A stretch of 64,000 nt of DNA from the IMG/VR virus record IMGVR_UViG_3300025137_000020, positions 1 to 64,000 of that record; one strand, 5' to 3'. The notes under the pieces were generated by a model. The model was given only the letters and a program-made list of their open reading frames with translations. It was not told the origin of the DNA and ran no database searches. The translations under genes were made by a program, and so were the position numbers. This DNA comes from a virus. Of the stretch, positions 1-58,500 are shown one piece after another (within the stretch, counting starts at the first letter, position 1; the number at the start of each line of letters is the position of its first letter).

Positions 1-562
1 TTTTAGGGTGATACACTTCGAACACCGGAGTGCCTAGTATTGAACCATGCGGGATGCAAGACTCATTGACAATTACTTCTGTTCCCTCTTTAACAAGCGA
101 TTCGCCTGAAATCGGAAGCAGAAGATTTTTGTTTAAAACGTAAGTGCCCTTCTCTAACTGATTGTTTTTATTTATAAAAAGGGTTGTCTCAACCAATGGA
201 ATATCTTTAATATTTGTTCCAGTTACTTCAGTTAATATGTTTGAAATTTCTTCGTCGGACAGTTCGGTGTGGTCTTTTATTAACCATAGGGCTGCTAAAT
301 AAGATGAGAGTGAAAGCTTACCAATTAACGGTACTTTGCGAATAAGCTTTCTTAAATTAAAAGCCAACTTATGAAACATGGTATAAACTTTTCTATCACC
401 GGAAGTTAATTCGTTTTTCGGTTTTGTAAGTTTATAATCTTTATCAATCACGCCAGCCTTATAAGCTCCAGTCTTTTCAACTGGCATAGTCATTAGCCTA
501 AGCAATCTAAGTGCGAAGGCTTGGTCTGCTATCTTAATAAACTCGTTTAATTGTTGTGTCAT
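1..562 (-). CDS. Conserved T4-like hypothetical protein (gp61.1-like), 3' end runs off the window
   Basis: Not in the ORF track. ATG at 562 overlaps the stop of the upstream gene (ATGA). Manual translation MTQQLNEFIKIADQAFALRLLRLMTMPVEKTGAYKAGVIDKDY...VYTMFHKLAFNLRKLIRKVP matches the AY(K)xGxID...YTxFHxLxxNL(K/R)xL motif of a conserved T4-like family. Frame is open to position 1. Confidence 0.7.
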   Translation of the reverse strand, partial: MTQQLNEFIKIADQAFALRLLRLMTMPVEKTGAYKAGVIDKDYKLTKPKNELTSGDRKVYTMFHKLAFNLRKLIRKVPLIGKLSLSSYLAALWLIKDHTELSDEEISNILTEVTGTNIKDIPLVETTLFINKNNQLEKGTYVLNKNLLLPISGESLVKEGTEVIVNESCIPHGSILGTPVFEVYHPK

Positions 563-924
563 AGTTTTCTTAGAATGTTAATGAGTTTTTCATCTAACGG
601 AATATTAGTATACCAACCCTGCGGAAGGTAGTTTAAATATACTAGAAAGGTTTTTAGCGACGGAAGACACTCTTCAGTCACTTTAAGGAACATCATTCTA
701 TTTGCGGCTTGAATATCAAACACGTTATAGAACGATATTAAATGGTTTAACACTAGTCTTTCTTTTATTTCTCCGTCTTTGATGTACCTTCCTAATAGTC
801 TTTTAATATATTTAATTCTGTTGAAATCATCCCAAAACTCATCGGCAGTGAGACATGCCTTATTGACATAATGCTCAACTGCGTAAGTCTTGATGTTTTT
901 TTCAGTTGGTAATAATATAGACAT
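559..924 (-). CDS. Conserved T4-like phage hypothetical protein
   Basis: Motif EFWDDFNRIKYIKRLLGRY...ERLVLNHLISFYNVF is typical of a cyanophage-like core hypothetical family. ATG 924 preferred over TTG 927; late promoter at 931-938. Confidence 0.75.
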   Translation of the reverse strand: MSILLPTEKNIKTYAVEHYVNKACLTADEFWDDFNRIKYIKRLLGRYIKDGEIKERLVLNHLISFYNVFDIQAANRMMFLKVTEECLPSLKTFLVYLNYLPQGWYTNIPLDEKLINILRKL

Positions 925-930
925 CAAAAG

Positions 931-938
931 TATTTATA
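931..938 (-). promoter_or_regulatory. T4-type late promoter TATAAATA
   Basis: Exact gp55 consensus 6 nt upstream of ATG 924. Confidence 0.8.
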
Positions 939-948
939 AGGGCTGGCC

Positions 949-1800
949 TTACTTCATACCTTTAATTAAAGCTGCGATTGCGTTGTATGTATCATCGGTA
1001 GCAGCGAGTCCTAATGCTTTAGCAAGCTTTTTAGGGTCCGTTTCTCCACCAGAAACCATTTGATGAAGGTCGCTCATTTTAGCTTCGTCGAGTTCAATGC
1101 CTTCAGAAATAAGCTTTCCAAGTAGAGCCAAATCAAAATATTCTTTTTGCTCTTCTTCTTCACCATCAATTGCTTTTCCAATAGCGGCCCTTTTCTTTTT
1201 AAGGTACTCGTCAGTTTCGTCTTCATCGCCATCATTGTCAATGTCGTCGTCCTCTTTACCTACTGGGTCAAGAGCTTCTTTTTTGACTTCTGGTTCTTCT
1301 GCTTCTATTTCTTCGCCATCTTCTTCTTCTTCGTCCTTGTCTTGGTGACCATCAACTCCTGTTTTAACGTCGATTGTTACTTCATCGTTCGACTTAAAAA
1401 TATTAGCTGCGATTGCTCCGCCTTCGGTCATGTCTTCTTCTTCGTCCTCGTCCTCTTCTTCCTCTTCCTCTTCATTGACGTGAGAACCCGATTTAATAGC
1501 GTCGATAAGGCTAACGATTTCTTCTTCTTCGATTTCATCTTCTGGCTCTTCATCTTCTTTAGAGTCAGCGATCTTTTTAGCAACATCTGCTGCTATTGTT
1601 ACTGGATATTCTTTTCCATCGAATACAAAGCTGTCTTTGCCTTCTTCTTTTGCGGAAGCTGCTGCTCCCATAAAACTAGCGACGTCCTCAGATGTGAGGT
1701 TTGCTACTAGCTCGTAAATACTGGTTTTGCCTTCGACAACTACTTTTGCTGCATCAGCTAGGCCAGCGATATCTTCTAATCTGTGTCCTATAAATGACAT
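949..1800 (-). CDS. Acidic internal head/core-like protein
   Basis: Very E/D-rich. Contains EALDPVGKEDDDIDNDGDEDETDEYL (DxDxDG loop) and several [ILV]xE sites. SD AGGAG upstream of ATG 1800. Confidence 0.6.
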   Translation of the reverse strand: MSFIGHRLEDIAGLADAAKVVVEGKTSIYELVANLTSEDVASFMGAAASAKEEGKDSFVFDGKEYPVTIAADVAKKIADSKEDEEPEDEIEEEEIVSLIDAIKSGSHVNEEEEEEEDEDEEEDMTEGGAIAANIFKSNDEVTIDVKTGVDGHQDKDEEEEDGEEIEAEEPEVKKEALDPVGKEDDDIDNDGDEDETDEYLKKKRAAIGKAIDGEEEEQKEYFDLALLGKLISEGIELDEAKMSDLHQMVSGGETDPKKLAKALGLAATDDTYNAIAALIKGMK

Positions 1801-1815
1801 GTTATTATTCTCCTT

Positions 1816-2121
1816 TTAATTTACCATTAATATTGCGCCGATGCCGGCAGTTACTATTGCCCCTATGACTATTAAGCCAAGTTGAACAACACTTGAAATT
1901 GTTGCTTTTGATTTTGCTAATAGCACCTCTGCATCACGAAGGCGTTCTTCCATTTCATCAAATTTAGTGTGTAGATCATCAATCGATTGCCAGATTGTTA
2001 CTGTCTTTTCTTCAAGACTATGAATCTTCTCCTCGGCACGAGCTAGTGATACTACTGCATCACATAGCTTATCAATCTTTTCCTCGATTCTATCGAGACG
2101 TGTACCTTCGTTTTTATTCAT
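1816..2121 (-). CDS. Coiled-coil protein with C-terminal transmembrane helix (XhlA/holin-like architecture)
   Basis: RLDRIEEKIDKL heptads followed by hydrophobic VVQLGLIVIGAIVTAGIGAILMV. Confidence 0.5.
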   Translation of the reverse strand: MNKNEGTRLDRIEEKIDKLCDAVVSLARAEEKIHSLEEKTVTIWQSIDDLHTKFDEMEERLRDAEVLLAKSKATISSVVQLGLIVIGAIVTAGIGAILMVN

Positions 2122-2122
2122 A

Positions 2123-2473
2123 TTAGTTATCTACTTTAGCAGAGCCTCTCCATTGGTAACAAGACCAGTACCGAGCTTTCCATTTCGGTCCAGGGTTATC
2201 ACAACTATGTCGTGCTCTAAAGTTTTTTCTGCGTTTGGGGTCGTCTCTTTTGATTTCCATATTGGGGTCACCAAATCGAACTACCACAACCGTACCTTTT
2301 TCGTTTTTGACGTATACTTTAAATTTCTTATTCTTATTCTCTGAAGTACGAATAGGATTATTAAGCTCTACTTTCTTACCTTGGTATTCAGCCTCAGTGA
2401 TTAGTAAGTGCTCGTAAAGACCTTCACATGCTTCATCTACCGCATCTTCAGTGTATGTTTTAAATTGCTTCAT
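2123..2473 (-). CDS. Small basic predicted internal head protein (RFGD...RKNFRARH..C...ARYWSC family)
   Basis: CTS-like start MKQFKTYTE. Conserved motif VVRFGDPNM...RRKNFRARHSCD...ARYWSC. Confidence 0.65.
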   Translation of the reverse strand: MKQFKTYTEDAVDEACEGLYEHLLITEAEYQGKKVELNNPIRTSENKNKKFKVYVKNEKGTVVVVRFGDPNMEIKRDDPKRRKNFRARHSCDNPGPKWKARYWSCYQWRGSAKVDN

Positions 2474-4824
2474 TATTTTTTTACTTTAGCAGCGAGGTCT
2501 TTATCAGCTCCACCCCAAGTTCCTTTTGATTTAGTTACAAATGAATTGACTCGGGCGTATCCCCATTGTGTTGGATTAGTACCTGGTCTATGTCCGGTTC
2601 TCCATGCTGCGACTCCGCGGTTGAAGACTTGTTTTAGAATGCCATAGGAAATACCAGTCTTGTCAGCTTTCTTTTGTAGTGCGTCCAATTTCTTTTCTTT
2701 TACCGTCGTTTTTTCGAACATCTCGTAAGGAAGGTTTTTCTTCTTATTGTATTCTAGCTTTCTAAGTTTTTCTCTAAACGCCTTTGAACGACCATCTAAT
2801 CCTTTGGGGTCGGCTTCGTCAAATAGAGCAATCAATGCGTTTAAGAGTTTTCCTTTTTGCAGTAAATCTCTTGAAGACTTATCGCCAAGAGCTGTCATGA
2901 TCGTCTCTTGAGATGCGGTCTTAAGTTTCTTAAACATAACGGCGATTTCTTTCGGAGTATCACCGCGTTTAATCATGTAAACTACATTGCCGGCAGTCTT
3001 CTTATCAGAACCTTTGAACTTTAGTTTATCTAATGCTTTAGACTCTTTAATTTCAGCTTCTTCGCTGTTGATGCTTTGGAGTTCTTCTTCTATTGACTCA
3101 TTCTTACGAAGAAGGAGTTCTCTATTTAGCATTGATATTGTTTTCTTAGCTCGGGTAACTCCTTTAAAAGCTTTAAGTAAGTCTAATATATCTTGTTTGG
3201 AAAGTTTGACGAGCTGAGCTGCAGTAGCTTCTTCAATTGATTCTAGTTTAGTCAGTTTCTTCTTAAGCATATCGACATACTTATTACCACCATACATCTT
3301 AACCATACGAGCATCTGGATTTTTAATTAGTGCTTTAAGGTCTTTGATTAGAAGTTGCTTTTCAGAAGCTTCATCAAGACTTTCTGCAAACATGTTATAT
3401 CCACGAACGTCTTCTTCGTCTTGCATTTTCTTTATAAACTTTTCTGCGGAGGTTTGATTTGGAAAAGACTTTTTCATCTTCTTACCATTCCACAGTTCGA
3501 CTGAAGCGACTACTTTCTTTGCTTCTTCAAGGTCAGTAGATTCTCCGATTGTATCAACCTCAGGTTGTTTTTGAATATAACGAATAATAGGCTTTTCATT
3601 TGGAACAATCATACTGAGACCAGATTTGTCAATGCTTGTATCCCACGAACTAAATTTGTTTCTCAGTTTCTTTTTAAGTCTTAACGCGGCTTGCTTAGTT
3701 AAAGCTTTAACTACTACACGGCGGCCATCTTTCACACCTATGTTTTCTTCAATACTATTAGATTCTCCTAACACCGCATCAACACTACCACCTGGAACTA
3801 GTGCGGGATTGCCTTTCATTTGCTTAATCCCTTTCTTAATAGCTTCGGCTGAGTTACGTGCTTTTACATCCACTGTCTGGCCCTTGAAGAGTTTACCAGC
3901 TTTCTTAGTAATAGTTACTGTCCAAAATTTGATTGCTTCATTAACAGATTCGTTGACTTCGTCGTTCATGTCAATTTCCATCTCAGACAATCCCTTCAAG
4001 CCGGCTTTCTTACGGAGAATGTTTAGCGCTTTAATTGTTTCTCTTTGCTTTGGTGAACCAGGAATCTGTTTCAGAGCTAGAGTTGTAAGCTTAAGCATGT
4101 CTGCGTCATTATGCTCGTCAACTGCATCGACCTCAGCATCGTCTTCGGCTTCGTCGGCTTGGCCATCTGTATAATCTAAGGTGTCTTCTTCGTCTTCGTC
4201 TACATCTACAACTCTTTTTAATACAGAGCTTGATTCATAGCTATCGTTATCTTCGCACTTTTGTTTAAGCTCAGCTAAATCGTTTTCATCTTTATACCAG
4301 CTTGACTTAACCTCTTCTCCCGTACTCTTCTGTGCTATCAATTGAAATTCTGTTCTTTCTGCTAAATCCCTTTTAAACGCCGCTAAGGCGATAGTCGACT
4401 CATAAAGAGAATAGTTAGTTATGTCGATAGGACGCTTTTCTAAAAAGGCTTCTAAAACTGCTTCGGCTTCACTCGGAAATGAAGTCTTTAAAATTTCTAA
4501 ACGATAATTAATCATAGTGTTTTCCTTTGCTGGTACCCGGGTTCTTTTTCCTTTAGGTGCTTTTCGTGGTGTAAATAAATCAGTTGATGGTATTTTTTTC
4601 ATGGGTGCACCAGAGAAAAATACTAAAGAGCCATCGTCGTCAAGGGCGGGATAATATTGGTCTGGGCGCTTATCAATATCCATTTTAATACCCAGCTTAA
4701 CTCGACCGGTGAGTTTACTAGTCGCAACAGCAATATTATGCTTCTTAGATAAAGATTTCTTTCGAAACTTATTACCCAATCTCCATGTCTTTGCTAAATC
4801 AACTGCCTGCTTTTTGTTTAACAT
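2473..4824 (-). CDS. Modular predicted internal head polyprotein with C-terminal DUF5824-like domain
   Basis: Tandem basic modules separated by ES-x(0-2)-[ILV]-[DEN]-E linkers. C-terminal LKQVFNRGVAAWRTGHRPG...QWGYARVNSF motif. Late promoter at 4834-4841. Confidence 0.65.
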   Translation of the reverse strand: MLNKKQAVDLAKTWRLGNKFRKKSLSKKHNIAVATSKLTGRVKLGIKMDIDKRPDQYYPALDDDGSLVFFSGAPMKKIPSTDLFTPRKAPKGKRTRVPAKENTMINYRLEILKTSFPSEAEAVLEAFLEKRPIDITNYSLYESTIALAAFKRDLAERTEFQLIAQKSTGEEVKSSWYKDENDLAELKQKCEDNDSYESSSVLKRVVDVDEDEEDTLDYTDGQADEAEDDAEVDAVDEHNDADMLKLTTLALKQIPGSPKQRETIKALNILRKKAGLKGLSEMEIDMNDEVNESVNEAIKFWTVTITKKAGKLFKGQTVDVKARNSAEAIKKGIKQMKGNPALVPGGSVDAVLGESNSIEENIGVKDGRRVVVKALTKQAALRLKKKLRNKFSSWDTSIDKSGLSMIVPNEKPIIRYIQKQPEVDTIGESTDLEEAKKVVASVELWNGKKMKKSFPNQTSAEKFIKKMQDEEDVRGYNMFAESLDEASEKQLLIKDLKALIKNPDARMVKMYGGNKYVDMLKKKLTKLESIEEATAAQLVKLSKQDILDLLKAFKGVTRAKKTISMLNRELLLRKNESIEEELQSINSEEAEIKESKALDKLKFKGSDKKTAGNVVYMIKRGDTPKEIAVMFKKLKTASQETIMTALGDKSSRDLLQKGKLLNALIALFDEADPKGLDGRSKAFREKLRKLEYNKKKNLPYEMFEKTTVKEKKLDALQKKADKTGISYGILKQVFNRGVAAWRTGHRPGTNPTQWGYARVNSFVTKSKGTWGGADKDLAAKVKK

Positions 4825-4833
4825 ACTAATCTC

Positions 4834-4841
4834 TATTTATA
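4834..4841 (-). promoter_or_regulatory. T4-type late promoter TATAAATA
   Basis: Exact consensus 9 nt upstream of ATG 4824. Confidence 0.8.
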
Positions 4842-4846
4842 CGATT

Positions 4847-7282
4847 TTACCCGCCAAACTCATGGCCAGCTACTCTTTTCATTTGCTTTTTAAATTCTGC
4901 GAAGTTAGGCTTAGTTTTATACAGCTTAATACTTATTTCTGCTCTTTCTTTTCCTTTGATTCTCCACTCGTAACCTTTGGCTTTGTGCTCAGGTTTAGTT
5001 GTTCGAACTACGCGTCTTTCAAATCCATTCTCCCAAGTCTCGCTCTTCTTTTCTTCTAAATCTTTTTCTTCGGGTACACAATTAGGAACATTCTTATTTC
5101 CCTTTTTCTTCATACCTACTTGCTTATAGCCATCCCAACAACCATCTGCTTCGTCTACCTCTTCGCCTGGGGTGTTCTTTTTATATTTTTTCGTTAGCTT
5201 ATCTGTTCCAAGTTCACCGTAGGTTTCTTTAAATGATTTAGTAGATTCTACTACCCATTCTTGGCCTTTTGGAACATACTTTTGAATCTTTCGTAGAATA
5301 TCTTTTTCGATATCAGTGTGTTTCATAGGTGGCTTACCTGATTCCTTAACCTTAAAGTATAAAGCATCTTTGAGAAACTGTCCGCCTTTATCGCTCTTTT
5401 TCAAATCACTATCTACACCAATCTTATTGAAGGCGAAGGTAATATCTCCGTCCATATATTTCTTTAGGCCTTTGCCCATCTTCACAATATCTAACATTGT
5501 TTGTGATGCGCCTCTATGAGTATTTACTAGAATTTCAATTGGTACTACTCTACCTCTTGTCGGATCGGTGTTCTGAGACTTAGCAACTTCTACATCGTTT
5601 ACTACCCATACGATATGAATATTCTTAGTAGGATAGCTTGCGCCTTGAAGAAGTCTAGTTATGTTGTCTAGCTTTCTTAAATCTTTTAGTGTGACATCGA
5701 ATATAACATTGGGCTTATCTTCAGGTTGCTTAGTCATTACCGATGTAAAGAATGCTGCCATCTTCTTATTAGGAAGATTCAATTCATCTGCTACTATACT
5801 GTGAAGTTTACTTACGTCGCCACTTCTAGTTAAATCGAATTTAGAAAGTTCTTGGCCAGTTTTGTCTTTAACAATCTGAGCAATCTTCGGTGCCTTGAGG
5901 ACTAATCTCTTTAATTCATCAACATCAAACTTCTTACCTTCCATGCCGATAAGATTGTCAAGTACAAATCCTTTACCGGAACCGGCTCCTCCAGCTAGAA
6001 TTAGTGCATGACCTGATTTAGGATATGCTTTTTTAGCGAAGGTAATTAGCTTCTCGTCAAGTTGAACATCCTCGACCATTGTGTATCCTAACTTAGGTAC
6101 ATTGTTATATCTTTCAAGCTCTTGTCCACTCGGTGTTTGAATTGATACTCCACCTTTAATCTTTACGATTTTAAGAGAGCTTGCTTTAGAACCGTATTCC
6201 TTCTTCAACTCCTTTTTGAGCTGAACCATGGTCATGTATTTAGTTTTTTCACCAAACATCTGTTGATACTTCTTTGTGTGTTTAGATGGTTTGGTTTTTG
6301 CAGTAGCATCACCGGGAGCGGGTTCGTATGCCGAATCATCATCGTCGTCTTTAGCTGCGCCTTTCTTAAAATGAGCGTCTCTTTTATCTTTAGTAGACTT
6401 GGACATCTCTTTACCTTTAGCATCTTTTCCATAATACTTAGCGGGTTGAGTGCCCTTTTTGTCTTTTACGTCTGGGTCTTGCTTAACTTCTGACAAATCT
6501 TGAATCCAATACTTTTTACCGATTGAAGATACAATGTAGTTTGGCTTTCTTTCTGATATAGTTACAATCTTGTTTTCTTTATTATAAACGGTGTCTCCAA
6601 CATTAAACACTTCGCCTCTAGCATATAATTCTCTTATATCTGATACTTTATCAAGTTGCACGTGTTCTCTAAAGTCGTTAACTTTCTTTAAGCCCATTGC
6701 TTTTCTTAATGCATTGAAGAGTTCGGCAGCACCAGAATAACCTTTCGGTAATCCATTTTGAAATAATTTAAAATCGCCATCTGATGCAGCAGTTCTCATC
6801 TTAGATGCTGACATGCCAGTTACGCCTTCAGCGTCTGGATCACGTTCTCCAGCCGATACTACATTAATGCCGTTGACGAAATTATAATATCCATGTCTAG
6901 CCTTTGTGTCGTTATACTTTTTCAATAAGCTATCAAAGTCTTGCACTCTATCACCACCAACAACCATAGTGATTTTATTATATCCCATATCATAAAGGTC
7001 TGAAGCGATGGCTAATGCATTATTGACCTTATTATTCATTACAATACTTCTTGCATGCTTTGGGAACATTTTGCGCATGAAGCGAATCTTATCTTTGTAT
7101 ACTAAAGGATTCTTTTTTGGGTCATTGGACGTGGATGCGTAAATCTTATAGTCTTTACTCTTTGCCACCTTAGCAATTTTGTCCATTAGCTTTTGGTGAC
7201 CGGTGGTAGGCGGGTTAAATCTGCCGAAAGTAAAAAATACTTCTTTTTCCTTTGCTTCATTAAATTGTTTAAATGACTTCAT
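4847..7282 (-). CDS. Cytidyltransferase-like (HxGH) nucleotidyltransferase fused to a P-loop kinase (AAA_33/zeta-like) and small modules; predicted head-packaged
   Basis: FTFGRFNPPTTGHQKL, VVGGDRV and GMSASKMR (HxGH/KMSKS-type fold). Walker A LAGGAGSGKG at ~5970-5995, then NVIFDVT and RVVPIEIL. CTS-like start MKSFKQFNE; CWDGYKQVG...VPNCVPE module. Confidence 0.8.
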   Translation of the reverse strand: MKSFKQFNEAKEKEVFFTFGRFNPPTTGHQKLMDKIAKVAKSKDYKIYASTSNDPKKNPLVYKDKIRFMRKMFPKHARSIVMNNKVNNALAIASDLYDMGYNKITMVVGGDRVQDFDSLLKKYNDTKARHGYYNFVNGINVVSAGERDPDAEGVTGMSASKMRTAASDGDFKLFQNGLPKGYSGAAELFNALRKAMGLKKVNDFREHVQLDKVSDIRELYARGEVFNVGDTVYNKENKIVTISERKPNYIVSSIGKKYWIQDLSEVKQDPDVKDKKGTQPAKYYGKDAKGKEMSKSTKDKRDAHFKKGAAKDDDDDSAYEPAPGDATAKTKPSKHTKKYQQMFGEKTKYMTMVQLKKELKKEYGSKASSLKIVKIKGGVSIQTPSGQELERYNNVPKLGYTMVEDVQLDEKLITFAKKAYPKSGHALILAGGAGSGKGFVLDNLIGMEGKKFDVDELKRLVLKAPKIAQIVKDKTGQELSKFDLTRSGDVSKLHSIVADELNLPNKKMAAFFTSVMTKQPEDKPNVIFDVTLKDLRKLDNITRLLQGASYPTKNIHIVWVVNDVEVAKSQNTDPTRGRVVPIEILVNTHRGASQTMLDIVKMGKGLKKYMDGDITFAFNKIGVDSDLKKSDKGGQFLKDALYFKVKESGKPPMKHTDIEKDILRKIQKYVPKGQEWVVESTKSFKETYGELGTDKLTKKYKKNTPGEEVDEADGCWDGYKQVGMKKKGNKNVPNCVPEEKDLEEKKSETWENGFERRVVRTTKPEHKAKGYEWRIKGKERAEISIKLYKTKPNFAEFKKQMKRVAGHEFGG

Positions 7283-7286
7283 ACTA

Positions 7287-7661
7287 CTATTTATCTTCGT
7301 TTGAGGATGCCCTAAATCTCTTCAATCTTTCTTTTTCCGCTTTCTTAACTTTAGGCAAAAGCTTTCGTGCTATCCGGCCGATTGCCGATTGTTTCTTTTT
7401 AAGTTTCTTTTCTAATGATTCCCGTTCTGCAAATGATAAGTCGCTCGGGTTTCTGTTCTTTAAAATCTTTTTAGTCAAAATCTTTCTAGCCAGTTTTCTA
7501 GCTCGGTTTTCTAGCTTTTCGGGTGTAGCCATTTTCCGCATCGCGAGCTTTTTCTTACGAGCAATTTTCTTAGCCATCCGCCGCATCTTCTGTCCTCGCT
7601 TAATTCTTTGAGCGCGAGTAAGAGCTTCGTCGGTTTGTGTGTATTCTTTAAATGATATCAT
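7287..7661 (-). CDS. Highly basic predicted internal head (DNA-binding) protein
   Basis: ATG 7661 overlaps the upstream stop (ATGA). Start MISFKEYTQTDE|A is CTS-like; remainder is very K/R-rich and helical. Confidence 0.65.
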   Translation of the reverse strand: MISFKEYTQTDEALTRAQRIKRGQKMRRMAKKIARKKKLAMRKMATPEKLENRARKLARKILTKKILKNRNPSDLSFAERESLEKKLKKKQSAIGRIARKLLPKVKKAEKERLKRFRASSNEDK

Positions 7662-8890
7662 TTTTCCCAACCCTTAATTACGTCTTTTGAAAAGTTATTA
7701 TAAGAAAACTCTAATCTATCTACAAGCTTAATTGCCCCGCCGCCAATCTTATCAATTGCAACAAACCCTTCTTGGCCCGTAACTTTAAATCCTTGTTTAG
7801 TTCTAACAAAAGTATTCATACTCTTAACCTTATCGAGTTTAGATATAATAAGTTCCTTTGCAACCACCAACTGCTTTTGTAGTTCGAACACTAGTTCTAA
7901 ATTCTTTTTGTTAGAAGCGGAGAAGAACTTAAGTCTTTCGTCTTTCTTCTGAACAACTTTTTCTTTTCCAGCTGCGCTCTTTCTCTTGTCAACCTCTTTA
8001 GTGTATCTTTGTTCATACCATTTGAGAAGATTGACAACATGCTTCTTTGAATCTTTAATCTTTTCTCCGGCTCTTACATATGTGTTATTGAATGTTTCGA
8101 GTTCTTGAGAAAGACTTGGGTCCTTTTCGATTTGTCTGAGTGTAGAGCCTTGAATCTTTTGGAATATCTTTCCTGCCACTGAAAGAGCTTTGGTAACCTC
8201 GTCGGTTTCTTCTTTTGACAATAGAGTACCAGACACATCTTTCAAACCAGCATCGTCAAAGAAGATTGAATCTGACTGCTTAAATGAGCCTGTGGCAACC
8301 TTATAAGTTGCTTTCATCGATTCAAAATCACTTCCGTTGTATGTGGTGTGAAAGATAATACCAATTTTAGCTTTATTAATCTTCTTGCCTAAATCAGATT
8401 TGACTGGTACTGCGTATACAATCGTGTTTGGTTGAAACGTATAATAGTTTTCCCCATCAATCGTTTCAGTATCTACATCATCAGTAAATAGTAAATCTCC
8501 CTGTACTACCCCTTTGATTCCTAACTTACTTAGTTCTGATAAAGCTACTTTGAGTTTGGATGCAAGGTCACCAGATGTATCGGCATCTACGTCTGCATTT
8601 GTTTTATAGACTTTAGGATTCTTATTGAAGATTCCTTTCTTAGCCACAAAGAATTTTCCATCGCTTGGGTCGATTCCAGCAAATACTGCAGGAGCACCAT
8701 CCCATTTAACAGTTACGTCGGTTGTCTTTGAAGATTCTCCGGCTAACATATCTCTCATACCACGAAGAGCAAAGATTGCTTCTCGAGCTCCTTTTACACC
8801 ACCATATAATACTCGGTCCTCAATATGAGTCATGTGAGTATTCTTACCGGGTGCTGATGCTTCAGCAATATATGATTTGAAATTAATCAT
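7658..8890 (-). CDS. DUF6267-like protein with ligase/covalent nucleotidyltransferase motifs; predicted head-packaged
   Basis: TVKWDGAP (motif I KxDG, 8696-8707), VVQGDLLF (III-like), GQEGFVAID (IV), AIKLVDR (V). Start MINFKSYIAE|A resembles the T4 CTS. Confidence 0.7.
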   Translation of the reverse strand: MINFKSYIAEASAPGKNTHMTHIEDRVLYGGVKGAREAIFALRGMRDMLAGESSKTTDVTVKWDGAPAVFAGIDPSDGKFFVAKKGIFNKNPKVYKTNADVDADTSGDLASKLKVALSELSKLGIKGVVQGDLLFTDDVDTETIDGENYYTFQPNTIVYAVPVKSDLGKKINKAKIGIIFHTTYNGSDFESMKATYKVATGSFKQSDSIFFDDAGLKDVSGTLLSKEETDEVTKALSVAGKIFQKIQGSTLRQIEKDPSLSQELETFNNTYVRAGEKIKDSKKHVVNLLKWYEQRYTKEVDKRKSAAGKEKVVQKKDERLKFFSASNKKNLELVFELQKQLVVAKELIISKLDKVKSMNTFVRTKQGFKVTGQEGFVAIDKIGGGAIKLVDRLEFSYNNFSKDVIKGWEK

Positions 8891-11043
8891 GGTTTTAATA
8901 TTACCTTTGCTTGTTTAATAATACCTTTTGGTCCAACTGATTTTTTTAAATATTTCACTAAAGCTTGAACTGCTTTTTTAAACGCGCCTTTAAAAGTAAA
9001 ATCTCCATCGTCTAAAACCATATTGCCCATCGCACGAATTGGAACCTTATAGTCAAACTTCCACGTGTCATTGCCTTTAGGTCTTTGACCTCCGTGTTTA
9101 GATGACCATTTTAATATATCAATATTAAACGGAATAGAGCCAAAGATTTCTTCTAATTCCCTTTCTTGCAAACTCTGAGCGTGCTCTTTAAAAGTAGTCT
9201 GTTCTACCACGTTGAGGTCTTTAAATTTCTTTTGTACTTCTGGGTGCCACTGATATGTCGTATTAAGTTTTCCGGTTACACCCGACTTTGACCTTTGGGT
9301 TTTCATTGCAATAGGAATACGCTTGCCGTCTTTAGTTATAGCATATACAAAAATGTTTCTTCCGGTAATCGCGCCAGTCTTCGAGTTCTTAGTAACCTCT
9401 TCACCATCACCTGGTTTACCAACATCGAAGTGAGTAATAAAATCGTCGGTAGATTCTATATTAAGTGCAGCTTTGATTTGCTCAGCTTCTACTACAGTAC
9501 CGCCCATATTTAAATTAAACAGGCCTGGATATTTTCCTACGCCTTCACCATCTTCACCATCGACAACTCCAAGATGGAGCTTATCAATTATATTCTTGCC
9601 TTCAAGATAGTCTCCTAACCCTTTAGATTCTCCGTTCGGCAATTTGATTTGCGTTTGATTTAGCTTATCGTTAGTTTCTCTTTGTACGTCTAAGCTTCTT
9701 TTCTTAATCTTGCCTAAGTTGACCTTAACATCGTTTTGAGCGCCGACTCTTTGAATCAGCTTAATCATATCCGTCGAAGGCTCTTTGGTTTTATTAGGAT
9801 CAGCCATGTAATCAATAAATGCTTTAAGCTGCTCTTCTTCACTAGCATCGTCTGCAACCGAAAATCTATTCTTAGTCTTAGTTCCTGTAAAGATTGATTT
9901 CTTACCGCCGACAAATCTAGACGCAACTAAAGGGTCTGCTTTTATCTTTTCAATAGCAGCTGTCATATCTACCTTCTGTAGACCTTGCCCTAGTGGTACT
10001 CCGACATCTTTAAGTGCAGCTTCAGCTGAGATCAAAGCCTTCTGACCATCTTCGATAATTGCGATGGCTTTAGCTTTTGTTTCTTCTTTAAGTTTTAAGC
10101 CAGAAATGACATCTTTCATTTGGTCTGACTCTTTGTTAGGTGTTGAATTGGCTTGGATATCTGATGTCGAAATCTTATCCGAGTGGAATGTTACAACTCC
10201 TCGGCCTTTGTTATCAATTGCAATTGAGGAAGTATCGGACGGATTCTCTCCACCACCACTCACTCTTATAAATTCTACTAATTGGGCTCTAGGAATCTCT
10301 ACACCTTTATTAGTATAAAAAGGACCTGCACTAGCTTTGATTAATTCGACCTGTGCTTCGATTGACTGTGAATGGCCATAGAAATTTCTAATTTTAGCTG
10401 GGGGAATAACTTTGCCGTCTTCAGCAAGTGCGTCAATCGCTTTAGTCATTTTCTTATGTTTTTGCATGCCAGACTTGGCAGTAGAACCCATAAGAGCAAA
10501 TAGCTTTTTATCTAAGCCTTCTCGTTCTCCTCTTTTAAATGTCTCACCGCCTGAGTTCTGTTTACCGAGGGTAGTGTCTTTGACTTGATTGTATAAAGCT
10601 CTCTGAAGTTCTTCTTCGGTAATATCTGGTTTAAGTGTAATAATGTTGGACGCTTCACCCGACATAATTTCCTGCATCATCGACCCCGCGTTTCCAGGTG
10701 CTGGTTTAAACCCATCTACTTCATTATAGCCAATATCTAATCCTTTCTGCTTAATGGCTCCATCAGAAAATTTGTCATCTCTGTCTCCTAGCTTTCCACG
10801 AGAAGGTGCATTTGACGTCGCAGTTGATTTTTTAGAAGGTTGAGCTTTATCAGATGGCGTTGTGTCTGATTTAGGGTCTGCTTTGGCAATTGGTTCTAAC
10901 CTTTTTCCGTCGTCAGATGCTTTGAAAGACGGTTTATCGCCTTTCTTTTTTCCATATACACCTCGGCCAAAATGGACTAATCCCATTTTCTTGGCTTTGT
11001 CTGATGCTTCTGATTCGTGTAACTTAAAACTTTTAATTGACAT
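8887..11043 (-). CDS. Large modular predicted internal head protein, function unknown
   Basis: CTS-like start MSIKSFKLHE|S followed by an ASDKAKKMGL...GRGVYG module. Internal FKEH...LQE/LEE site precedes a small C-terminal module. Late promoter at 11090-11097. Confidence 0.55.
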   Translation of the reverse strand: MSIKSFKLHESEASDKAKKMGLVHFGRGVYGKKKGDKPSFKASDDGKRLEPIAKADPKSDTTPSDKAQPSKKSTATSNAPSRGKLGDRDDKFSDGAIKQKGLDIGYNEVDGFKPAPGNAGSMMQEIMSGEASNIITLKPDITEEELQRALYNQVKDTTLGKQNSGGETFKRGEREGLDKKLFALMGSTAKSGMQKHKKMTKAIDALAEDGKVIPPAKIRNFYGHSQSIEAQVELIKASAGPFYTNKGVEIPRAQLVEFIRVSGGGENPSDTSSIAIDNKGRGVVTFHSDKISTSDIQANSTPNKESDQMKDVISGLKLKEETKAKAIAIIEDGQKALISAEAALKDVGVPLGQGLQKVDMTAAIEKIKADPLVASRFVGGKKSIFTGTKTKNRFSVADDASEEEQLKAFIDYMADPNKTKEPSTDMIKLIQRVGAQNDVKVNLGKIKKRSLDVQRETNDKLNQTQIKLPNGESKGLGDYLEGKNIIDKLHLGVVDGEDGEGVGKYPGLFNLNMGGTVVEAEQIKAALNIESTDDFITHFDVGKPGDGEEVTKNSKTGAITGRNIFVYAITKDGKRIPIAMKTQRSKSGVTGKLNTTYQWHPEVQKKFKDLNVVEQTTFKEHAQSLQERELEEIFGSIPFNIDILKWSSKHGGQRPKGNDTWKFDYKVPIRAMGNMVLDDGDFTFKGAFKKAVQALVKYLKKSVGPKGIIKQAKVILKP

Positions 11044-11089
11044 GCAGTGTTCCCATAAAAATAAAATTGTTAGGTCATTCTAACAATAC

Positions 11090-11097
11090 TATTTATA
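11090..11097 (-). promoter_or_regulatory. T4-type late promoter TATAAATA heading the head-cargo cluster
   Basis: Exact consensus, followed by a hairpin ATTGTTAG...CTAACAAT in the leader. Confidence 0.8.
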
Positions 11098-11109
11098 AGA
11101 AAAACTATT

Positions 11110-26775: not shown

Positions 26776-27417
26776 TTAGAGTTTGGAGAGGAAATCCTTA
26801 AACACCTGTTCTTGTACAGAAGCTAGTTCTGCGGAAGAGGCTTTACGAATTTCAGTCTCATATTTTTCAAGTTGCTGAGCTTTCAATATTCCATTATCCC
26901 ATATCCACTCTACGCCTTCCATAATGCCATCTACGAAAGCACCTTGGGCTGAGGGGTCTTGGACAATGTCTACTGTAGAGAGTATGTAGTCACTATTGAC
27001 ATACGTAGCTCCCTGTTTATTCTCAACTGTTCCCATACCACGGCTAGAGACGCCAAGCTTAACTCCACCTTCAATAAGACCTTCAACGATCTTACCCATA
27101 GGGGTGTTAAGAATTTGCGCCTTTCCAACAACATCATCACCATTAAATTTTAATTCGGTGATTTTGTGTGAAACTTTATCGAGGTTAATTTGTGGACCTT
27201 CTGGGTGGTCTAACTCTCCCACCGCACGTCCTTGACTAACCTGTTCGGTGACGTATTTTTCAACGGCATCGAATAAAATGTCTTTAGGATAGACTCGGCC
27301 ATTTCTATTTTTCTTTGCAGCCTGCATAAAGATACCTTCAATGAAAGTATGTTTTTTGCCATCCTTTTCTTCTGTAAGATAATTTAAATTATCGTAATGT
27401 TCTGTTATTAATCTCAT
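26776..27417 (-). CDS. gp21: Prohead protease
   Basis: IEGIFMQA..KNRNGRVYP, GELDHP, GVSSRGMG, DIVQDPSA. Confidence 0.98.
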   Translation of the reverse strand: MRLITEHYDNLNYLTEEKDGKKHTFIEGIFMQAAKKNRNGRVYPKDILFDAVEKYVTEQVSQGRAVGELDHPEGPQINLDKVSHKITELKFNGDDVVGKAQILNTPMGKIVEGLIEGGVKLGVSSRGMGTVENKQGATYVNSDYILSTVDIVQDPSAQGAFVDGIMEGVEWIWDNGILKAQQLEKYETEIRKASSAELASVQEQVFKDFLSKL

Positions 27418-52551: not shown

Positions 52552-55500
52552 TTAAAAATCAAAATCACCAGACTCAACTCCACCGTCTGTAATTTCTATT
52601 GATTTACCTCCACCCGAAACTGCTGTTACTAATAGTGTTCTGGCATTAGAAACTATGTTTGTCGGTGTAGTGTCATTAGGAGAATCATATTGTGCTCCTG
52701 CAAAATATTTTGTACTGCCCATAGTAAATTTGATGTCTGACGTATCAGTATCATTAAACGTAACAGCATTACCACTTACTGGATTCACTGCTATATCAAC
52801 AATTGGGTTTTGTTGGTCTGATGCATCAACTACTTTAAATGTGCCACTCCTGCCTGTGCCAGTTACCCGCATTCCATTTACTATAGTGCCTGTTGGTGCT
52901 CCGGCTAATCTAATTGTAGTTTCTTTAAATATAATAGATTTACCATTCCCAATGTCGCCCGTAAGAGGACTACTTAATTCAATTGCACTCTGTCCAATAC
53001 TAACAATTGTAACAGTTCCTGTTGGAAAATTAGCATTTGTTGATGTTACCACCATTCCGGTCGATAAGCTACTCATACTATTACCGCTTTTGCCAGTTAT
53101 AGTATGCACTCCCAACTTAGTATCTCCATTTATATACGGTCTTTTTATTACTACATTATTTCCTAAATTTCCTGTAGGAGCTGAACTTATAGTTATCTGA
53201 CTATTTGGTACATCAATATTGGTAATTGTAATTGTACCAGATGGCCAAGTCGATGCGGTACAGGTTAACACATCGCCGATATTTAAATCTGCAATTGTAT
53301 TTGTATAGCCATCTCTAAATCCATCGATTGCAAATGTAGCAGATGCTGCAGCAGTTTGATTTCTATCAAAGGTGAATACAGAACTTTTAGCAGTAGGTGC
53401 TACTCCAAATGTTCCAGTTGCATCTTCAATAGTACCAGTAGGTAATGTAAAGTACGCGTTATTCGCCCAAGATACATAGCATCTACTTAGTTCATCGCTA
53501 TTAAATGTGGTTCCTGCAAAATCTATTTCCGGTCCAACCGTCGCTCTACTTAAAGAACTTAGATTTAATTTATGAAATCCAATTAGCTTAACTCCACTTC
53601 CAATATTTTTAAACGCAGCATTCAATGTAGTTACATTAGTCGTATCCAAACCTCTTACATCAATATGTCTAAGACTTGAACAATTTTCAAACAGTGTTCT
53701 TAAATTAGTAAGATTTGAAGTATTACTAATTCCTTTAATAGAAATGAAGTCGGTTAGTCCGGTACAACCTTTTAGTGATAATGATGCACTAGTACTACCA
53801 CCTTGTACTAACGCCGAATTACCCAAATAGAATTTTCTTAAGTGTGTTTTGAAATTAGCTCGAGCTGCTGTTAATTGTATTGCAGTGATTCCAGTTACCG
53901 CCGCGGATGGACCTGAACTATTAATAGCCCCCACATTAAATTTGTGGTATGTACCAGCCACTTTAATTATAAATCGTTGTGGTGATGCAGTTTCAGTATA
54001 CACGTGATACAAATCGCGGTCTCTCGATGTGTCTACTTGATTTGAGGTGCCGTCACCCCAATCGATTGAGATGTTATGGCCATTCGACGACTGATCTTTT
54101 TGGAATGGCAATATAATCATATTAGTATTAGTACCACCAGAAGCTGGAATTTCAATTTCTATCAGAGTTTCGACTGGTGCGCCAGTACTTATAAGTGAGC
54201 CATTAATTTCATCTGAATATTCAATACCATTTTTAATTTCGTCAATTGTCACTGAAAAGTCTTGGCCTTCAATAATATGACTGTAATTGCTAATAGCTTC
54301 ATCTGCATTTAATATAGGTGTCTTCCAATTAATAATTTGAATTTTCTTTTCATAATCATCTGCACCTAATTTATACTTAGCTTTGCCACTAGTAAGTTCT
54401 TCAATAGATGGTTCTAAGCCATTAACTTCATCGATTCGTGGAGCATAGAATTGTACTGGGTGTTCGGCATCTAATGGATTAGCATTCTGAAGAACAGTCA
54501 GCTGAATCTTAGTCATAGCAGAATTAAATTTCCAATCTCCACGACTTGTAGAAGCTGGTAATGTACGAACTTTCAGTGGATTAGTACTTGGAAGATAGAT
54601 ACCACTATCTTCGTGGTCTGTAGTTCCTACATGCCCGAATGGTCTAATATGTCCGACTACTAAGAACCATTGATTTTCATTCAGTGGGTTTCCATCGGGC
54701 GATGAGGTTGTAGTTGAATTTAATCCAAAGTCAAAGTCATCTATAAATGTTGGTGTATTTATTTCATCACCGCTGGTAATGTTTATAGCTTCAAGTGTCG
54801 CACCAGAATCATTAAGTCCTTTCCATCTAAATACTTTAATACCACCGTCTGTAGTGTCATAAGGATTTACTCCTGCAGCGTATCTAACATCAGAAGCTTT
54901 AACCCATACTGACATTCGATATGTTTTACGTGTATCTACATCTACTTGTGGGCTTATAAATCCACCATCAGCAAAACTTATTACTTTACCGCTACTTGTA
55001 TTAATAGTACCACTTACTAAATTTGCCCTGCCTATAAATTCTGTGCCGGAGGTAGTTAATGTTTGACCGGCTTTAATCTTAACTAAAATATTTGCTGTTT
55101 CATATACACCCGCTGCAGTAGTTTTACCATAATTAACTCCACCATCCGTAATAGTAATTGATGTTGGTTTACCACCGCTTACTACAATCGTAGCTTTAGC
55201 TCCAACACCCACGGCATCTGAATCATTCGGCGAATCGGTTATTTCTACATTAGTGTATGTTCCATTAGTATATCCACTACCAGCTACATATCCTGTGCCA
55301 CTTAAAAATATACTAGAAAGTTTTGCCCAGTCACCATCTTTATTTCTGGCCTCCCATAATACATCTGTACTTCCAAATGGTGTTACACCTTCGAGCTGAA
55401 CGTTTTCTTGCGTTGTTCTAAATGGAGAGTTACTTCCACTATTAAAGGCAATTGGGTTACCTAGAGCTTCAAAATTATTATTGGTTCCGGTACCGACTGT

Positions 55501-58500
55501 AAATGGTAAATTACCAGCTAGTAGATTTGATTCTATTATCGGCAGCGCGTTTAAATCAAAGTCGCCTAAATTAGTATTCTTATCGCCTTTTACATTATAG
55601 AAATTAGTATCTGCGGGATGTTTAATATCAATTGCAACACAAGCCTCATCATTTGTTTTAAGTGTATTTAACGAAATATCATAGTCTACATTATCTTTTA
55701 AGTCAATAATAGTTTCTCTTCTTTCGTCAATCTCGTCTTTGCCTTTTACTATATCAGAATCAAAACCTTCTTTAATATTAACGTCTTTGATATAGAAATA
55801 TTCTCCGCTAGCATCACCAGTATACCCAGCATAACCACGAAGTGCATTATCCTTTAGTGTAGTAACAAATCTAACTATAGGTCTAGGGTCTTGTTGAACA
55901 GAAGGTGCAATAAATTTATGAGTAAATGGTATCCAATTGCCCTTTTCTGTCACAACTACTGGTTCAGTTCCATACGCGTCATAGCCGGCAAGATCGCCCG
56001 TCATAATCTGAAACTCGCCTGATAGATTTGAGAACAAAGGATTTCCAGTATCGTCATACACATATTGACCACTAATTTCGTCCGTAGCTCTTTGATTGAT
56101 TCCTGCCATAACATGAATCTGTTCTAGTTTAGTATTTGTTGACGGTATATAAATCTTTCCGGTGACCTCATAAATCTCGCCTGGATTATATAATTCGCCT
56201 ATTCCAAATCCACCAGACTCGTCACCGAGTGAAACATAATGTAATACTGAAGAAGACGCAATATATTTTAAAGCACCATATTTACCTTTAGGTACGCCCA
56301 AGTATGGATTTCCGCTTGAATGATATTCTTGACCAACATCCGCAGAATCTAAAGTTCTGTTCTCTAATGCAGGTACAATTAGAGTTCCGCCGTATTTAGT
56401 TGCGCCATCTGTGGCTGCAATACTGCTGAAATCTACGGGTCTGTAAAATTCTGTATAAAAATTGGGGTGTTGATTTGTTCTTCCTATAAACCCAGCATCT
56501 GGAGCATCGGCGACTATACATTGGAAATTCCCTTGGTATACCCTCTTTCTTTTCTCGCGAACTTTAAAATTCTCAAGCTTCCAATTGTATTCATACAGTC
56601 TTTCGAGATCAGCGATTGCGGTATTAATTGCTAAACTATTACCAGTCCTAGTTTGGTCTCTATCAACAATATGGTCAATTAGAATTTTAGGGTCATTCTC
56701 ATCTGCGGGAATGTAAAGCTTATGTGTATTAGCGCCTTCTACAATCAGACCATTGTCTAATGGCTCTACTTTAACAAATCCACCGCTTCCGCTGATCCCA
56801 TCGCCCGAATCTCTATTATAAAGTTGAAGTATATTTTCGCCAATAGATAGAAATTCTGATTCAAATACGAATAGGCTATAAAATTCACTCTCTGAAGTAA
56901 TATTATTCAGCTGATTATTCTGGTCAGGTACTACTCTAACTGCCGTAGTAGATTTGTAATAGTCTACTGGAGTTCTTGTCCTACTTATCGAGTCGGCGTT
57001 AGTGTCATCAACTCTTAACTGGTGACCATTATGTGCAAAAGAGTATCCACCTTCAGCGTCTCCAATGTACAGATATATTCTACATATGCCTTCTAATGAT
57101 GAGTTGAATTTAAATTCGTGAGGGCCTGTTCCGTGGTGTCCAGTACCACCCAAATCTGCATTTGGATTTCCAACACAAGAACTCGGGCTCGACCGACGTA
57201 TTGGAAAATACTTTCCAATTTTACCGGCAGACAAGAATAGATTCGCAGGAATATTTTTATCATTAATTTTAGTGGCATTAAACGAAATTTCATATGCCCG
57301 GTCTGATTCCCATCTAAAGTCATCCGATACATATGCACCGAGCTCTCCTTTATTCACCGGTTCATTCGTAGAGAACTTAACATCTCTTGTTAAGTACAAG
57401 GGTCTGTCGTGAGTATTGCTTGCAAGCGCATTATGTTCAGTATTAATTTCACCATTACCTACAGTATCAACTATCAATGTTATGTCGGATAAACCTGAAA
57501 GATTTCCAATTTCAGCATTTGGAATGACAAATCTGTCGTATTCGTCAAAACCAGTTATATCAGTCAATAAGTCAATTTGACCATAGCTTCCGCCAATGCC
57601 CGCTCGATATGCTAATTCTAAACCACTACCAAACGAGCTTGTGATATCAACGCCATCTTTATCGGTTATAGTAAATTGGCCGTCAGTAAGTAATGTGTGC
57701 TCACTTATTGTACCAACAAGCGCTGACCTGCTAGCAGCTCCAGTTCGCCTAAAGCTTCGAGGTGTTGTAGCCTTAAGAGCTTGTGCGGAGTCTCCGCCCA
57801 ATGATATAGTATTATTTAATTCCAATACTTCAATACCACCGTTATATGTGAGTGGCGTGTAGTCAGTACTGGTTTCGGTCGCAGGAATTGGATTATGAGC
57901 AGGACTGTCAGAGGTTAACCTATCAAACGAAATACCAACTTTATCTGTTTCAGTAATTAAATATTTAACTTCTTCTTCGTCGCTTTTATTGGTTGAGTAG
58001 ATATCTCTTACATCAATATTTGTAGGATATTTTGACAACTGGTGAGGCAAAACATTATTGTGTAATAATGAATGTACACTCGGCGCTTCATTATTTTCAT
58101 CTAAGTAATCAATTCTCGGTCTTGCGAATTCAATTTCATTGCCGGTAGTAATAGCTCTATACAAAAAACTTCTAATTAGAACCGCATTGGTGTCAGTGCC
58201 CAGCGAAAATTCTTGGATAGTTATACTAGAAATTTTATTTTTAGTTTCAACAGAGTATATTCCGCCATCACTGTAATCATTATAGCTTAAGCTTTCAGCT
58301 TCCGTTCTTTTAAAGAAATTTTTATTATACGTGCCGTTACTGCCATCAGCTTTAGTTATATATCCAACTGCCATATACCATTTGCCTACTTCAATCCCAT
58401 CTGGCAGAGAACTCAAATCAAAACTGAAAAAGTATGGATTATTAGTAGTAATTGTGTTATTCCGTTTCGACGCTACAGTTCCTCTTACACCACTACTTGT

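Follow-up and report, generated by a model that had tools for sequence, protein, structure and literature searches.

Here, we report on P0001, an open reading frame (ORF) of 783 amino acids (aa) from a marine T4-like phage, in which small, mutually unrelated domains are joined by copies of a short motif that corresponds to the specificity of a prohead protease encoded by the same phage. The window analysed is a stretch of 64,000 nucleotides (positions 1 to 64,000 of the IMG/VR virus record IMGVR_UViG_3300025137_000020, which has a length of 105,336 bp) with a GC content of about 38%. It carries the gene set of a T4-like myovirus, i.e., major head protein, T4-type scaffold, portal, sheath and large terminase, together with neck and baseplate genes, a gp46/47-like nuclease and a helicase. 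With moderate confidence, we regard P0001 as a head-packaged precursor polyprotein that is cut into peptides resembling the internal proteins of phage T4. Sequence comparisons lend good support to the underlying, proposed interpretation of the linkers as protease sites.

The first-pass annotation of this DNA, made from the sequence alone, had listed six linkers of the form ES-x(0-2)-[ILV]-[DEN]-E. All six were found, a few bases away from where they had been placed (Table 1). When aa 285-783 were shuffled 20,000 times, the strict motif occurred 0.02 times on average and twice at most, and the other approximately 96 ORFs of the genome contain two matches. Within the 120 closest relatives of P0001, the linker motif was counted 350 times, located at module boundaries.

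To avoid circularity, module starts were fixed by BLAST alone and the preceding residues were read afterwards, which led to 264 unique contexts from 274 proteins. The residue directly before the boundary (P1) is Glu in 234 of the 264 contexts and Asp in none. At P2, Glu (167) is found next to Asp (24), and P4 holds Asp in 77 and Glu in 60 contexts; hence the two acidic residues interchange freely at P2 and P4, unlike at P1. P3 is Leu, Ile or Val in 222 contexts, and P1' is Ala in 152. Further upstream, P7-P6 tends to Glu-Ser (Glu at P7 in 144 contexts), and P9 is hydrophobic in 99. A motif [ILVM]xE ending exactly at the boundary was observed before M1 (105/117), M2 (15/17), M3 (22/28), M4 (24/40), M5 (8/8), M7 (20/20) and the DUF5824 module (38/46), compared to a background rate of 2.4% per position. 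Every shuffling boundary of P0001 carries an L/I-x-E motif. A histogram of the end points of whole-protein high-scoring segment pairs was noisier than this module-wise analysis.

Three further cleavage sites had been proposed downstream of the six linkers. Two of them, IKE|S (aa 592-594) and VKE|K (aa 708-710), coincide with module boundaries, as seen from the contexts upstream of M7 and of the DUF5824 module. The third, LFDE|A (aa 667-670), does not: the flanking pieces always travel together in the relatives, and a test boundary placed slightly ahead of that site (aa 668|669, a distance of two residues) has [ILVM]xE in 0 of 20 contexts. Because LFDE|A is no boundary, approximately seven modules are counted, plus a 14-aa spacer and an N-terminal region of 296 aa, instead of the approximately eight released proteins assumed before. 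The double Glu of the linkers had been read as providing each module with a site at either end. Sites at both ends are indeed present; the idea that every linker is cut twice does not hold, as a first site of the type [LIVM]-x-E|S is suggested in about one third of the linkers.

In T4, the protease gp21 recognises L/I-X-E, a rule first defined on a glutamyl-alanyl bond, and Asp as the last residue of the leader blocks processing (PMC9026906). The linkers are in good agreement with this rule, given the Glu at P1, the lack of Asp in this position and the fact that the same motif terminates the leaders of relatives. As the first-pass annotation had assumed, a gp21-type protease is present in the window (Peptidase_S77, Table 1), and its product is presumed to be the enzyme that cuts the linkers. 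A T4-like targeting leader is found at the N-terminus of 40 out of 262 family proteins. P0130 consists of a leader and four modules, and in P0196, P0206, P0209 and P0221 the linker motif closes the leader and is followed immediately by M3 or M1; the internal linker is therefore the same element as the cleavage end of a leader. The major head protein shows a predicted site I-N-E|T where removal of the propeptide is expected, which fits the same rule, and the T4-type scaffold protein of the window is full of L/I-x-E-type sites and has a poly-acidic stretch.

A homologue search over 5.8 billion proteins returned 2,498 matches in a mosaic pattern; the addition of shorter proteins and of a full HMMER scan with M1 resulted in a total of 274 sequences. 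P0001 was cut at its linkers, and each piece was run separately by BLAST. The modules recur at 80-97% identity in these metagenomic relatives, in different orders, numbers and host proteins, which strongly bears out the earlier prediction that module order and content are shuffled in related phages. For example, M3 stands at the front of P0005 and M1 close to its C-terminus, P0003 has an additional module between M1 and M2, and the position of the 14-aa spacer is taken in relatives by a longer insert (240 aa in P0004) or by a different module. When 240 proteins were segmented de novo, 186 segment clusters resulted. No other module is shuffled as widely as M1, which has 29 kinds of left and 22 kinds of right neighbours. 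Among 1.84 billion representatives M1 occurs in 67 clusters only, always within multi-module proteins (62-1105 aa) and in changing positions. In the related locus L021, M3 forms a cassette inside an NMNAT-like protein, exactly between two linker copies, and the homologue of this protein in the window, with 811 aa, has a single linker at the place of insertion. The enzyme-bearing 811-aa protein thus uses the same module pool as P0001. M1 and DUF5824 are found in separate smaller genes of L021. In the genome of the window, family modules are restricted to a late gene cluster around P0001, other genes of which draw on the same pool (Table 1).

The first-pass annotation had delimited the polyprotein to positions 2473-4030. 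This span takes in the module part alone; the ORF itself extends over 2473-4824, and its start codon position is kept in the homologues P0002-P0013. Segments between linkers have 47-116 aa, 18% Lys and isoelectric points (pI) of 8.3-10.5, and they are mutually dissimilar except for the linker tails, so that their earlier description as Lys-rich and unrelated to each other is accurate. The last segment, previously called a recognisable domain, is identified as Pfam DUF5824 (PF19141), which matches aa 696-775 with 61.4 bits (cut-off 25) and an E-value of 1.3e-16. DUF5824 alone was recognised when single pieces and the whole protein were searched against Pfam and PHROGs, and neither an embedded processing peptidase nor signature enzymatic or LPD domains were detected in P0001 by the two collections. 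Diverged copies of the N-terminal part N1 (30-38% identity) are located at C-terminal positions of other family proteins. In N2, aa 107-206 are folded, aa 207-238 form a disordered, poly-acidic stretch, and a further part is helical; the fragment predicted to be cut out of it (aa 126-296) has a pI of 4.3 and a net charge of -23.

Table 1. Parts of P0001 and neighbouring features discussed in the text (window positions; linkers numbered from the N-terminus).
Feature	Residues (aa)	Window position	Strand	Description
P0001	783 aa	2473-4824	(-)	whole ORF
N1	1-103	4516-4824	(-)	basic alpha/beta domain, modelled pLDDT ~88
N2	104-296	3937-4515	(-)	ends in linker 1 (aa 292-296, 3937-3951)
M1	297-360	3745-3936	(-)	beta-beta-alpha-beta mini-domain; ends in linker 2 (aa 354-360, 3745-3765)
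M2	361-434	3523-3744	(-)	small alpha/beta domain; ends in linker 3 (aa 428-434, 3523-3543)
M3	435-485	3370-3522	(-)	ends in linker 4 (aa 481-485, 3370-3384)
M4	486-532	3229-3369	(-)	helical; ends in linker 5 (aa 528-532, 3229-3243)
M5	533-580	3085-3228	(-)	helical; ends in linker 6 (aa 576-580, 3085-3099)
Spacer	581-594	3043-3084	(-)	acidic, 14 aa; ends in I-K-E|S
M7/8	595-710	2695-3042	(-)	one helical unit of 116 aa; ends in V-K-E|K
DUF5824 module	711-783	2476-2694	(-)	C-terminal; internal or doubled in some relatives
Late promoter		4834-4841	(-)	T4-type, TATAAATA; 9 nt upstream of the ATG at 4824
Late gene cluster		949-11043	(-)	~10 kb around P0001
Prohead protease gene		26776-27417	(-)	gp21-type; Peptidase_S77, E 1e-37; phrog_207, E 5e-76
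116-aa protein		2123-2473	(-)	ATG overlaps the stop of P0001
811-aa protein		4847-7282	(-)	NMNAT-like
410-aa protein		7658-8890	(-)	DUF6267, E 6e-107
718-aa protein		8887-11043	(-)	leader at start
3677-aa ORF		52552-63585	(-)	adjoins baseplate wedge gene

An AlphaFold model of the full-length protein, built on 32 colinear homologues, has a mean predicted local distance difference test (pLDDT) value of 63 and a predicted template modelling (pTM) score of 0.24. It contains small domains of good confidence, namely N1, N2a (pLDDT ~80) as well as M4, M5, M7 and DUF5824 (73-86), and pLDDT drops at several linkers (aa 283-296, 419-434, 472-486, 575-594 and 697-708). Independent domains had been expected from the sequence, and the model conforms to this: no integrated fold extends across the linkers. 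M1 and M3 failed in the full-length model due to a too shallow alignment. When M1 was modelled alone with 30 diverse homologues, a beta-beta-alpha-beta fold with a pLDDT of 80.6 was obtained, and its linker tail is disordered (below 50). Fold searches gave nothing significant, neither for the full-length model (Foldseek against PDB and BFVD; VIA wide) nor for the M1 model (Foldseek against PDB; VIA wide). The best Z-scores of the fold searches are 5.5-6.8, and every weak match spans one module only. For M2, the ESM Atlas points to a generic small alpha/beta resemblance with a template modelling (TM) score of ~0.4. Separately, we note the small phage inhibitors AcrIE2 (Z 4.6), T7 Gp2 (Z 4.5), AcrIF9, AcrIC9 and Dmd among the structural neighbours of M1 at noise level; these are not significant and serve as a lead only.

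At the sequence level, late expression of P0001 is indicated by the consensus promoter upstream of its start codon. Sites of this T4 type occur 17 times in the window, where 7.6 are expected, mostly before structural genes. If P0001 is a packaged precursor, it would be made late, together with the structural proteins, and would enter the scaffolding core of the prohead. The gp21-type serine protease would cleave each [L/I/V]-x-E linker on the C-terminal side of its Glu and release approximately seven basic, Lys-rich mini-proteins of 5-13 kDa, a size and charge like those of the T4 internal proteins, as well as acidic fragments, i.e., N2, the spacer and linker remnants. Basic pieces would remain alongside the packaged DNA and reach the host together with it; acidic pieces would exit the head in the manner of T4 scaffold peptides. 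The same linker would serve as the joint for module swaps between genes and phages, and the combination of modules would differ from phage to phage.

Several observations weigh against this explanation. We infer cleavage, packaging and injection, and likewise the activities of the modules. P0001, which starts with MLNKKQ, lacks the N-terminal capsid-targeting leader pattern, and entry into the prohead is therefore assumed; another address would be needed, as is the case for T4 Alt. Several linkers are drawn as helix rather than coil in the full-length model, and no module matched a known inhibitor or DNA-binding fold in the fold searches. The preference for Glu-Ser at P7-P6, which is partly explained as a first site, lies outside the known gp21 rule. 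Finally, sites of the type [ILV]xE should be rare within the modules if selection acts against cutting there. The cores of P0001 have none, where 3.2 are expected, which is a weak depletion (P = 0.026), and 34 non-redundant family cores have 16 against 20.5 expected, which is not significant. Weaker linkers are probably among these sites, and in T4 itself gp21 leaves some [ILV]xE sites uncut.

Among the alternatives, the one that survives best is a multi-domain chain in the style of polyvalent proteins that stays uncleaved, with the linker as a flexible or helix-capping connector and its DNA as a recombination joint. We consider this doubtful. The helical linkers of the model and the missing leader of P0001 would suit it, as would the fact that shuffling breaks always fall at the linker. 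The codons argue in the same direction: in the loci L001-L028 and window positions 1-11100, the Leu at P3 is encoded by CTT in 14 out of 14 linkers compared to 38% in the background, and the Glu at P1 by GAA in all linker contexts, resulting in a shared core CTT-GAA-GAA-GC, although this is a small DNA sample with 21 linker contexts that are not mutually independent. This hints that the short core doubles as a recombination joint, or microhomology, for cassette exchange, a role which it probably has alongside cleavage. In contrast, the Ser codons of the six P0001 linkers (TCT, TCA or AGT) switch between TCN and AGT and therefore suggest a constraint at the protein level. A plain connector should also accept Asp at P1 no less than at P2 and P4, and it is not expected before the first module, where the motif is kept after a leader or a 5-aa start peptide with no domain to connect. 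The agreement of the motif with the specificity of a phage-encoded protease likewise argues for cleavage.

Less probable still, and in our opinion unlikely, is a sacrificial component of the scaffold or core like T4 gp22, gp67 and gp68, which would be chopped so that the pieces can exit, the modules being no cargo. T4 core proteins are in fact cut into several fragments (PMC9026906), the timing is equally late, and N2 has a long poly-acidic stretch like the scaffold protein of the window. This alternative does not account well for modules such as M1 that remain 80-97% identical across dozens of unrelated contexts and have compact folds, which argues for functions of their own. Moreover, the pieces are basic, so that retention on DNA is favoured, and an essential component of assembly would not usually differ in content between phages. 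That an acidic tetrapeptide recurs by chance, conceivable in principle in a protein rich in Glu, Lys and aliphatic residues, is of negligible probability and was rejected in view of the shuffling result and the 350 boundary occurrences in relatives.

The closest known counterparts of the proposed packaged precursor are the T4 internal proteins Ip1-3, which are small, basic and expressed late, have a leader ending in L/I-x-E|A that is removed by a gp21-family protease, and vary strongly in content between related phages. They are co-injected with the DNA, and each of the three is an inhibitor of GmrSD-type restriction enzymes (PMC9026906, PMC3012670, PMC12373910). More than 10 T-even internal proteins are known (PMC12373910); Lys residues of the T4 proteins contact DNA phosphates (PMC3012670), and T4 Alt is processed at both ends (PMC9026906). 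In the T-even phages each internal protein has a separate gene and its own leader, whereas P0001 joins approximately seven unrelated modules with the motif repeated between them, has no N-terminal leader and shows no detected similarity to Ip1-3 in sequence or fold. Like polyvalent proteins (PMC5512222), P0001 combines many unrelated domains in one chain with extreme architectural mosaicism. For these proteins, delivery coupled to DNA was proposed, and viral polyproteins were explicitly named as an analogy (Iyer et al. 2017, PMC5512222). Their domains are large and mostly enzymatic, and where processing occurs, it is carried out by embedded peptidase domains; P0001, in contrast, has modules of 47-116 aa and no embedded peptidase, and the prohead protease would cut it in trans. 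Multiple cuts after Glu by a gp21-related protease in the prohead would be shared with T4 gp22, gp67 and gp68 and with the propeptides of phiKZ, 201phi2-1 and SPN3US (PMC9026906, PMC10052503), which are degraded to fragments and are not built as arrays of shuffled modules that are conserved and fold independently. Eukaryotic RNA viruses likewise have polyproteins with one ORF, repeated protease sites and several mature proteins, but there is no evolutionary relation, the protease gene is separate here and cutting would take place inside the assembling capsid. Our literature search gave no description of internal-protein-like module arrays joined by prohead-protease sites, and no paper that mentions DUF5824.

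The late cluster contains further genes of interest. T4-like capsid-targeting leaders were found on five neighbours of P0001, with products of 116, 811, 124, 410 and 718 aa. In the 811-aa protein, the leader is followed by an NMNAT-like nucleotidyltransferase (PF01467) and a zeta-toxin/P-loop kinase-like domain; further on, V-V-E|S precedes an internal stretch resembling a leader, which is followed by a small Cys module and a module at the C-terminus. In the 410-aa DUF6267 protein, the leader ends in I-A-E|A and is very near the type of T4 IPIII, and the 718-aa protein has, besides its leader, internal leader-like and L-E-E sites near the C-terminus; both are candidates for packaging. The 116-aa protein has a leader at its start and, at its end, a Cys/Trp-rich module that matches DUF5754 weakly; this module recurs as a C-terminal fusion in the Melnitz NMNAT protein and is also fused to other family proteins. 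Within P0001, an ATG at codon 104 (window 4513-4530, (-) strand) is preceded by AAGGAA at Shine-Dalgarno distance and followed by M-I-N-Y-.., which is similar to the leader of the 410-aa neighbour (M-I-N-F-..). An internal start giving a shorter, leader-bearing product is conceivable. At a distance from the cluster, ORFs of 1771 and 1732 aa are found near the 3677-aa ORF (Table 1), and both lack a PHROG match; the three may represent the giant proteins of baseplate or fibres that have been described in pelagimyophages.

In the cultured-phage database, the last 60 aa of P0001 alone gave matches (HTVC008M, Melnitz isolates and C48C1), and no DNA match was obtained. HTVC008M is a phage of Pelagibacter, Melnitz a phage of Methylophilales. 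An equivalent late cluster with few small shuffled modules is present in HTVC008M (L029, 103767-111126) and in Melnitz (L030, 12203-19789). It has leader-bearing genes, a DUF6267 protein, an NMNAT protein that ends in or contains DUF5824, and the Cys module.

T-even internal proteins are the classic injected anti-restriction factors, and to our knowledge their description has been limited to single small genes of coliphages. Taking all observations together, we tentatively propose, as a possibility rather than an expectation, that marine T4-like phages related to the Pelagibacter and OM43 myophages carry a combinatorial cargo drawn from a large pool of 50-120-aa cassettes, each bracketed by a protease site that is also a recombination joint. 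The cassettes would be put together into polyproteins whose composition changes, cut in the head and injected with the DNA, and every phage would thus bring its own mixture of small effectors against host defences. As the cultured phages HTVC008M and Melnitz carry the leader-bearing cluster, the idea is directly testable. If true, abundant myophages of the ocean would package many proteins of the internal type from one gene, with the protease site as the standard connector for module swapping. It would mean a polyprotein strategy in a double-stranded DNA phage and a natural design for bringing several cargo proteins into a T4-type capsid. The linker rule would then divide hundreds of uncharacterised metagenomic proteins into units, candidate inhibitors or DNA-binding peptides, and the cassette pool would form a rich, pre-delimited library of candidate anti-defence mini-proteins.

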